From Opitutales bacterium (GTDB lineage Bacteria > Verrucomicrobiota > Verrucomicrobiia > Opitutales > JABSRG01): DNA of 53,110 bases. Below the pieces are notes generated by a model, which did no database searches, was not told where the DNA came from, and saw nothing but the letters and a program-made list of their open reading frames with translations. The position numbers and the translations under genes were made by a program. Position 1 is the first letter of the stretch. Each line of letters begins with the position of its first letter. Below, one piece after another: positions 24,566 through 25,633 of this stretch. The DNA is taken from positions 1 to 53,110 of the forward strand of contig JBMYOQ010000021.1 of assembly GCA_049599475.1 (NCBI GenBank). The letters are read 5' to 3'.

Positions 24566-25633
24566 ATGCCAGAATTCGACAAAGAAAGCGAAGTGGCACC
24601 TGATTCAGCTGAGCCGATCGCCGAACCCAAAGCCAAAGAGGCCGCGGTAAGCGAAGAGGTTAAAAGCACCGAAGCAGTCGAAGAATCGACTCCCGCGGTG
24701 GCCGAGGCGGAATCCACTGTATCCGTCGAAAAAGAAGCAGAAGTTGCTCAGGAGACTGTTCCATCGGAAATCAAAGAAGAGGAAGCAGCCCCCAAGAAGG
24801 AAGAACCTGTGGCCAAAGCACCCGCTCGCCGTGGACGCCGTGGAGGTGGTTTCAAAGGTTCATCCGCTAAAAAAAGCAGCGAAGCCGCATCTAGCGCAGC
24901 GATGGTAGAAGTCGTTGCGGGATCGGTCAAAGAAGACGCTATCGCTCAACGTGTAGCCAAATTGGGCGACGCAATCAAAGATAGCGGAGATTCCAAAGAC
25001 GAACGCAGCTCTAGCGAGAGACCCCGCCGCTCCGGTTCTGGAGAAGGGCGCTCTCGCCGTGGTGACAAAGGCGGCTCAGAACGCCGAGATCGCCCACGCC
25101 GCGAATCCAACAAGGATCGCAAACCTCGCGAATCTTCTGCAGATGCCCAAGGCAAAGCAGAATCTGACGCGCCCAAGAAGAAAAATCAGGATCGCTACGT
25201 GTCCCGTTCAAACAAAGGACAGGCACAAGACAAACCCAGCCCACGCTCCGGCCCAGACAGAAAGAACGCTTCTGAGCCCGTGAGAATGGATTTCACTCAA
25301 AAACCAAAATCCGAGGGCATATTCGCCTCGATCAAATCCGCAATCGGAAAGCTTTTTGGAGGTTCGGAAGAGCCCGTTAAAAAAGATTCTCCGAAGCCAC
25401 GCGGAGGAAAAGGCCAACAGGGACGCGGCCCGCGTTCCGGTAATAGAAATGGCCGTGGTCGCGGCAAAGGCGGACGCGGCCCTCGGGGAGAAGGCAATAG
25501 CAAGCCACGCGGAGACGGTTCACGCCCGAAAAACCGAAGCGGTAATGGTCGTCGCAGAGCGCCCCGCAAACGCTCCGGCAATCGCGGCGAAGGCTCATCC
25601 TCTCCAAAGCCAAAATCCGAAGTAGAGTCCTGA
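24566..25633 (+). CDS. Intrinsically disordered protein (acidic N-terminus, Arg/Gly-rich blocks, amphipathic helix); resembles the RNase E scaffold region
   Basis: Low-complexity E/A then R/S/G/K composition; GIFASIKSAIGKLFGG helix; own promoter and terminator. Confidence 0.75.
   Translation: MPEFDKESEVAPDSAEPIAEPKAKEAAVSEEVKSTEAVEESTPAVAEAESTVSVEKEAEVAQETVPSEIKEEEAAPKKEEPVAKAPARRGRRGGGFKGSSAKKSSEAASSAAMVEVVAGSVKEDAIAQRVAKLGDAIKDSGDSKDERSSSERPRRSGSGEGRSRRGDKGGSERRDRPRRESNKDRKPRESSADAQGKAESDAPKKKNQDRYVSRSNKGQAQDKPSPRSGPDRKNASEPVRMDFTQKPKSEGIFASIKSAIGKLFGGSEEPVKKDSPKPRGGKGQQGRGPRSGNRNGRGRGKGGRGPRGEGNSKPRGDGSRPKNRSGNGRRRAPRKRSGNRGEGSSSPKPKSEVES

Follow-up and report, generated by a model that had tools for sequence, protein, structure and literature searches.

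A disordered verrucomicrobial protein family with a helix resembling the membrane-targeting sequence of RNase E and a basic, putatively RNA-binding tail

RNase E and RNase Y are known to anchor RNA decay at the membrane. Within the non-catalytic region of RNase E, residues 565-582 are described as the membrane-targeting sequence, an amphipathic helix that anchors the protein to the membrane, and residues 604-644 as AR1, an RNA-binding site; in the same account the two rank as the most conserved microdomains of that region, and the membrane-targeting sequence is said to be restricted to RNase E of beta- and gamma-proteobacteria and to be missing from that of alpha-proteobacteria (PMC4435900). 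The disordered region of RNase E is further described as driving the formation of BR-bodies (PMC13405055, PMC10412687). Here, we examine a stand-alone protein, P0001, encoded at 24566..25633 on the forward strand of a 53,110-nucleotide stretch of DNA from an Opitutales bacterium (GenBank assembly GCA_049599475.1, contig JBMYOQ010000021.1; this whole stretch is referred to below as the window). An earlier, sequence-only reading of the window, made without database searches, had taken P0001 for a membrane-tethered RNA-binding scaffold that is encoded apart from any nuclease, that is, a split degradosome or a condensate former. We put at about 0.5 the probability that P0001 is a disordered protein tethered to the membrane by a conserved amphipathic helix and likely to bind RNA through an Arg/Gly/Asn-rich tail. 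Three features are central to this reading:

24566..25633, forward strand: coding sequence of P0001, 355 residues, intrinsically disordered, of an unannotated verrucomicrobial family (open reading frame, ATG start, orthologues)
25316..25372, forward strand: amphipathic helix GIFASIKSAIGKLFGGSEE, residues 251-269, predicted in-plane membrane anchor (AlphaFold2, hydrophobic moment, profiles)
25391..25600, forward strand: basic tail rich in Arg, Gly, Asn and Lys, residues 276-345, including the conserved GNGRRRAPRKRSGNR, predicted to bind nucleic acids (composition, alignment)

Like the E. coli RNase E scaffold, P0001 carries an amphipathic helix of about 16 residues that begins with a Gly, closes with F-(S/G)-G-G-E-E, and is embedded in a disordered chain, together with a basic stretch rich in Arg, Asn, Gln and Gly that lies about 10-20 residues past the helix. 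Short conserved microdomains in a long low-complexity chain, as described for RNase E (PMC4435900), are a further likeness. Unlike RNase E, P0001 has no catalytic domain on the same polypeptide and no helicase, enolase or PNPase sites, and it belongs to another phylum; homology between the two is not established.

The helix lies at the residues first read for it, and the E. coli motif that had been quoted for comparison, GLLSRFFGALKALFSGGEE, is correct and corresponds to residues 569-587 of the rne product (NC_000913.3). As judged by sequence and predicted structure, P0001 has an amphipathic helix of the kind that targets the RNase E scaffold to the membrane; the helix forms the best-scoring block of the AlphaFold2 model (residues 252-264, pLDDT of about 79). 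Its hydrophobic moment is 0.59 versus 0.64 for the E. coli RNase E sequence, the mean hydrophobicity of which is 0.76. Conservation of the helix across orthologues had been proposed as a test. Among the blocks of the family alignment, the helix (residues 251-266 of P0001) alone is shared by all 31 members, in 29 of which it aligns as one block while in the other two (L041 and L043) it stands at the extreme C-terminus. All 31 members have an amphipathic window of 14 residues with a hydrophobic moment of 0.40-0.75 and a mean hydrophobicity of 0.30-0.93, and shuffles of each protein matched the observed moment in 0 to 20 of 200 trials.

A profile of the helix block, built from verrucomicrobial sequences alone (32 columns, 29 rows), matches residues 563-590 of E. 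coli Rne, which comprise the membrane-targeting sequence and its flanks, with 20.4-21.4 bits. When all six frames of the entire E. coli K-12 chromosome were scanned with a 26-row version of this profile (A4), the rne segment came out on top as the sole significant match (27.5 bits, E 2e-5), followed at 14.3 bits (E 0.34) by an unannotated frame that contains a stop and at 13.9 bits (E 0.49) by ftsY. Scored directly on classic membrane anchors, the profile gave 10.9 bits for FtsY, 4.3 for MinD, and 1.8 for FtsA. Further, among the 28,814 six-frame open reading frames of the window organism, the P0001 gene reached 35.1 bits and all others 13.8 bits or less. At the level of sequence, the resemblance of the helix block to the membrane-targeting sequence of RNase E is specific and statistically supported, and the likeness that had been noted by eye is upheld by scores of 20-27 bits for rne as compared to those of MinD and FtsA. 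Comparisons of whole P0001 with Rne were not significant by BLASTP (E 0.18) or by hhalign (E 0.0018, probability 15%), yet both methods picked the same pair of helix segments. Additionally, the NCBI RNase E model aligned residues 236-336 of P0001 with model positions 552-651 (E 0.0033), outside the catalytic core; P0001 had no other NCBIfam match.

The Arg-rich region that was expected behind the helix is likewise a property of the family. All 29 tailed members carry a net charge of +6 to +29 past the helix, and Arg, Gly, Asn and Gln together account for 31-67% of the tail, in which GNGRRR is often present; in each of these members the tail is basic and resembles an RNA-binding region. In composition and position the tail of P0001 is similar to AR1, and the alignment with the NCBI RNase E model spans it, the sequence being of low complexity.

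The helix is combined with a basic stretch in proteins outside the family as well. The family profile, when run over 151 genomes of the class, gave 27 matches. In other orders, a basic stretch and the same kind of helix are located N-terminal to an RRM_1 domain (Pfam E 1e-20 to 1e-23) in L094, L096, L097, L099, and L101; a sixth small RRM protein, L100, was read by eye only. In L098, the module is N-terminal to DEAD/Helicase_C, and the first possible start puts the helix at residues 17-32, followed by a RERERERDR-type stretch. These RRM and helicase relatives were found with the family profile at E 1e-8 to 5e-4. The genome from which the window derives encodes one short RRM protein (140-aa frame), which does not carry the module. 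The module-bearing RRM proteins and the DEAD-box helicase are possibly membrane-tethered RNA-binding proteins, and the presence of the module on them is the best indirect evidence for an RNA role of the module.

P0001 is the product of a real gene that has its own terminator, and the product is almost wholly disordered. The open reading frame is present as first read (forward strand, ATG, 355 aa), and it is taken to be more than a chance frame because its ATG is conserved, a terminator follows it, orthologues occur across the order, AlphaFold2 predicts helices in the product, and contigs from RNA libraries fall inside it. The ATG agrees with the conserved N-terminus of the orthologues. The contigs derive from four RNA libraries of a single seawater study and lie, with no differing letters, inside the reading frame at 24630-25649; they are weak evidence for transcription of P0001, given that RNA libraries can hold DNA. 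Stretches of 23882-26400 that lack such contigs were not used, since contigs cannot show absence. With the alignment of 31 family sequences, AlphaFold2 gave a mean pLDDT of 48 and a pTM of 0.18, with helices at residues 124-137 and 252-264 only and the rest disordered. The ESM Atlas model has a pLDDT of 0.39, and its structural neighbors all have a TM of 0.23 or less, a value without meaning for a disordered model.

The protein contains 48 Ser, 42 Gly, 41 Glu, 41 Arg, 40 Lys, 36 Ala, and 28 Pro residues, just 2 Leu and 5 Phe, and no Trp, Cys, or His. The acidic N-terminus, Arg-rich blocks (RRGRRGG at residues 88-94 and RRDRPRRE at residues 173-180), helix, and basic tail that the sequence-only reading had listed were all located. 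No Pfam domain was detected at E values up to 1, including RRM_1 and DEAD/Helicase_C, and the catalytic core of Rne/Rng (S1, DNase I-like, and Zn-link; PF10150/TIGR00757) is absent from P0001 in the Pfam scan. The concern that the frame could be a fragment of a longer known gene is not borne out, in that a search for longer proteins that share its sequence, itself rated as weak evidence, returned none. The remaining features of the gene, its product, and its surroundings are as follows:

24566..24592, forward strand: N-terminal motif MPEFDKESE, with the family form MPEF[ED][ED..] (family alignments)
24566..24814, forward strand: acidic N-terminal region rich in Glu, Ala, Val, Pro and Ser, residues 1-83 (composition)
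24827..24853, forward strand: basic motif RRGRRGGGF, residues 88-96, elsewhere RSRW[KY]R or RRRSGGF (family alignments)
24899..24979, forward strand: conserved segment, residues 112-138, including the predicted helix 124-137 (invariant columns, alignment, AlphaFold2)
25016..25135, forward strand: Arg-rich mixed-charge block including RRDRPRRE, residues 151-190 (sequence, composition)
25277..25315, forward strand: lead-in PVRMDFTQKPKSE, residues 238-250 (invariant among 4 close homologues)
25666..25695, forward strand: hairpin resembling an intrinsic terminator, 13 pairs and then a T run, 33 nt past the stop codon of P0001
23905..24276, reverse strand: gene of the dUTPase_2 family, divergent neighbor and conserved syntenic partner (domain match, synteny)

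Mean column identity in the alignment of the 31 members is 15%. A start of the MP.[FY] type is present in about 18 of the 31 rows (counted by eye), and MPEF[ED][ED] is often followed by Y.P[SG]. Residues 112-138 align with the family motif GE[VI]...[DE].LSG.HA.GY and are a candidate short linear motif for protein binding; Arg-rich mixed-charge blocks are also kept in the family. When these other motifs were scored against E. coli Rne, the values were below zero to 2 bits, and no counterpart was found. Blocks of opposite charge had been suggested to drive condensates. Such blocks are evident in P0001 itself, where the net charge is -17 for residues 1-75 and +22 for residues 276-350; across the 31 members, the first 60 residues have a net charge of -16 to +6. 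The acidic block of P0001 that the suggestion needs is thus not general, and it is not conserved across the family.

No name is attached to the family. Three close homologues came out of a word-indexed search with P0001, all carrying the name "hypothetical protein [Verrucomicrobiota bacterium]". HMMER found 3 matches among 1.84 billion representatives, and a plain sequence search found homologues in 3 of 41 genomes of relatives. A word-indexed search with the family profile gave 9 matches, all unnamed or "hypothetical" and devoid of Pfam domains. Searches of open-access full-text literature gave no description of the family or of a stand-alone protein with an anchor of the RNase E type. Synteny and profiles extend the family considerably further. 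The P0001 gene lies 290 nt from the divergent dUTPase_2-family gene, a dUTPase-like gene is encoded by 57 of 61 sampled genomes of the verrucomicrobial order, and in 30 of the 50 loci examined (a count that includes G027, recognized via profile searches) its divergent neighbor encodes a disordered protein that shares the layout of P0001 and has 153-430 aa. A profile of the 31 members (A3) matches 37 of the 61 genomes and misses three members known from synteny (G028, G055, and G060), placing the family in at least 40 of the 61; ten of the profile matches lie outside the loci read and were not inspected by eye. One member was found in another order (L090), followed by a 458-aa open reading frame. 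Some small genomes, at about 0.9-1.0 Mb, encode members (G025 and, as judged by the profile, G044 and G051), and none was found in several others. The usual gene order is dUTPase_2 on the reverse strand, followed on the forward strand by the disordered protein, murA, and ruvB. Of the murA-sized frames, 3 of 3 tested belong to PF00275, one of them being MurA by TIGR01072 (525.9 bits), and RuvB is next in 4 of 4 family loci tested.

The most economical reading is that P0001 is a peripheral-membrane, RNA-binding disordered protein, which would act like the part of RNase E that consists of the membrane-targeting sequence and AR1. The helix would insert in-plane, in the manner of the RNase E sequence, and place P0001 on the inner membrane at its cytoplasmic side; the tail would bind RNA, as AR1 does. 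P0001 could thereby concentrate RNA at the membrane, where the RNase Y of the organism is anchored, and might recruit RNA-handling enzymes through the MPEF motif, the RSRW/RRGRR motif, and the segment 112-138.

Several points weigh against this reading. Membrane binding and RNA binding by P0001 are both predictions. The likeness of the helix to RNase E may be convergence on an in-plane anchor design. Over the whole protein, similarity to Rne falls short of significance, and just 1 of the 31 family members is touched by the NCBI RNase E model. The scan of the K-12 chromosome scored three first-look candidates only, and its ranking is therefore incomplete, which is why the anchors of FtsY, MinD, and FtsA were scored directly. 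Arg/Gly-rich tails bind DNA, acidic lipids, or polyphosphate too. The RRM and helicase matches were obtained with a low-complexity profile and may share the helix and a composition with the family, not ancestry. Finally, a murA-sized open reading frame (430-467 aa) is located directly 3' on the same strand in 22 of 28 family loci, with a gap of about 10-60 nt, and this downstream neighborhood of murA and often ruvB points to no RNA function.

The genome of the organism encodes a single Rne/Rng homologue of 590 aa, which ends with the catalytic domain, adjoins a rodA/ftsW-like gene, and scores higher as RNase G (390.5 bits) than as RNase E (324.5 bits) in NCBIfam. An RNase Y whose N-terminus carries a transmembrane segment is encoded as well, scoring above the cut-off at 528.8 bits; RNase J is absent. 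In the order, 59 of 61 genomes have one Rne/Rng gene, with open frames of 509-711 aa, and the Rne/Rng domain is present in all 201 sampled genomes of the phylum, mostly in frames of 510-650 aa. Published values agree with this picture, as a table lists RNase E/G of Chlamydiae/Verrucomicrobia at 510-554 aa with no predicted degradosome and tail-less RNase E/G in most phyla (PMC3071783). Rne/Rng frames of 722-954 aa that were read proved to be spurious GC-rich upstream frames, an N-terminal disordered extension, or a second copy that lacks the helix.

Other properties of these enzymes were observed along the way. The RNase G gene (reverse strand), the rodA/ftsW-like gene (reverse strand), and the RNase Y gene (forward strand, 46868-48385) lie within 5 kb (G000:C22:43615-48385), with the RNase Y gene and the rodA-rng pair in divergent orientation. 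In the order, RNase G (G000:C22:43615-45387, reverse strand, which is L001 1165-2937; orthologues L113-L129) has a basic N-terminal extension of about 70 aa that ends in a conserved amphipathic helix of the RAKKRPLLQKIVQAI type directly before the S1 domain, with a hydrophobic moment over 11 residues of 0.53-0.78; this RNase G may itself contact the membrane or RNA. The RNase G of another class within the phylum begins with MFLWGFLKRLF. The second copy mentioned above (L111, G214:C199) comes from one genome of the phylum and is of the RNase E type; its frame has 756 aa, its tail is made of repeats rich in Ala, Pro, Arg and Gln (..APAERQAPAER..), and it lacks an amphipathic helix. A different lineage or a contamination could account for it.

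It is against this background that the split degradosome is to be judged, in which P0001 would be the separately encoded non-catalytic half of RNase E and would, in trans, bind the tail-less RNase G-like enzyme along with a helicase or PNPase, holding them at the membrane or drawing them into condensates. Such an arrangement is in keeping with a helix like that of RNase E followed by a region like AR1, with low-complexity segments rich in E/A/P/V or in Arg, types that have been listed for the tails of RNase E (PMC4435900), with several short conserved motifs that could be partner sites, and with a sole Rne/Rng homologue that has no tail. A trans-acting RNA-binding partner of an RNase E is on record in RHON1 of the plastid (PMC3458557). 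Set against this, an RNase E/G without a tail is what the order and the phylum generally have, and it calls for no missing half; P0001 is therefore not singled out as one, and the finding that the genome's Rne/Rng lacks a C-terminal tail, proposed earlier as a check, does not discriminate. Moreover, a transmembrane RNase Y is present in the organism, RNase G in this order has a conserved basic amphipathic helix of its own at the N-terminus, and the P0001 gene is on a different contig from rng and rny. Neither the 8 long-frame loci of the phylum (5 sequences read) nor the search for longer proteins yielded the module fused to RNase E/G, and neither fusion nor gene linkage of the family to any RNase was found. 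Counterparts of the helicase, enolase, and PNPase sites (e.g., PF12111 PNPase_C) were not detected in P0001 by Pfam, and the family motifs have none in Rne. A complex prediction for RNase G with residues 1-275 of P0001, made without controls, gave a score of 0.00 and a mark of 0.32 and speaks neither for nor against binding. The sequence-only reading is thus supported in part, in that the helix, the tail, and the tail-less RNase stand. Because the link to a nuclease and the partner sites were looked for and not found, P0001 cannot be filed as a fragment of RNase E or as a degradosome scaffold, and we consider the split degradosome unlikely. In a broader form of the same idea, to which we give equally little credence, the non-catalytic half of RNase E would exist as a free-standing, order-wide gene whose product is a membrane-anchored, RNA-binding disordered hub that gathers the tail-less RNase G, RNase Y, and helicases in an RNA-decay zone at the membrane surface, and sister lineages would have fused the anchor module to RRM proteins and a DEAD-box helicase.

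Slightly less probable again is a role of P0001 in the cell envelope, as a membrane-bound disordered adaptor for peptidoglycan synthesis or division that is co-expressed with murA. The murA-sized frames that so often follow the gene on the same strand, PF00275 in the 3 tested, invite this reading, as do the terminal or internal amphipathic anchors that are typical of MinD and FtsA and the MinD-like position of the helix at the very C-terminus of L041 and L043. Yet the murA-ruvB cluster is functionally mixed, the P0001 gene stands alone in the window with its own terminator, the helix profile sets MinD and FtsA far below RNase E, and it is not obvious what an Arg/Gly/Asn-rich tail would do in wall synthesis. 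The least probable of the alternatives is a tether of the nucleoid or of ribosomes to the membrane, in which the conserved basic tail would bind DNA or rRNA, not mRNA; the neighbors dUTPase and ruvB act in DNA metabolism, but the RRM and DEAD-box proteins that carry the same module act on RNA, and no DNA-binding fold is present in P0001 by Pfam or AlphaFold2.

A membrane-tethered, RNA-binding P0001 can be set beside three other kinds of system. RHON1 of Arabidopsis, like P0001 as predicted here, is a separate RNA-binding polypeptide, and it is described as supporting a chloroplast RNase E that is without the proteobacterial scaffold; unlike for P0001, its binding to RNase E is experimental (PMC3458557). 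The BR-body scaffold formed by the C-terminal region of alpha-proteobacterial RNase E is, like P0001, a long disordered, mixed-charge, Arg-rich chain, a comparison that is limited by the acidic block of P0001 not being conserved. MinD, FtsA, and FtsY use a short amphipathic helix for reversible in-plane membrane binding, as is predicted for P0001; unlike P0001, they have folded ATPase or GTPase domains, and their helices score far lower with the profile (10.9-13.9 bits for FtsY). We know of no sequence relation between RHON1 and P0001.

In this family, a predicted anchor of the RNase E kind and an Arg-rich region make up a portable module outside the phylum of RNase E's known anchor; one order has the module as a separate protein, and others carry it joined to RRM domains or to a DEAD-box helicase. 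If the module tethers RNA at the membrane, compartmentalized RNA metabolism would be more widespread than is assumed and would be built from separate parts, an unannotated "hypothetical protein" found across an order would gain a testable function, and the family would offer a test case for the pair of membrane-targeting sequence and AR1 without an attached nuclease.

A regulatory leader like that of rne was considered for the 290-nt region upstream of P0001, and no case for one emerged, as no conserved block was found there relative to the single available orthologue (G003). An Rfam scan of the window gave a tRNA at 244-318 as its sole match. The window also breaks the order-wide layout, with an ACT_7 protein (25674-26105) and an HTH/cupin regulator (26299-26892, reverse strand) in place of murA and ruvB. 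A 208-aa protein encoded at 27192-27818, without a Pfam or NCBIfam match, adjoins the P0001 orthologue in G003 too. A 1701-aa open reading frame (15001-20106, forward strand) without an NCBIfam match at E 1e-5 contains a P-loop (..VSPPGYGKTT..) and resembles a large unannotated ATPase. A 225-aa protein encoded at 28051-28728 on the reverse strand, which reaches a non-significant 9.3 bits with the helix profile, has a start like that of a signal peptide and short ..SLFG.. motifs near both of its ends.

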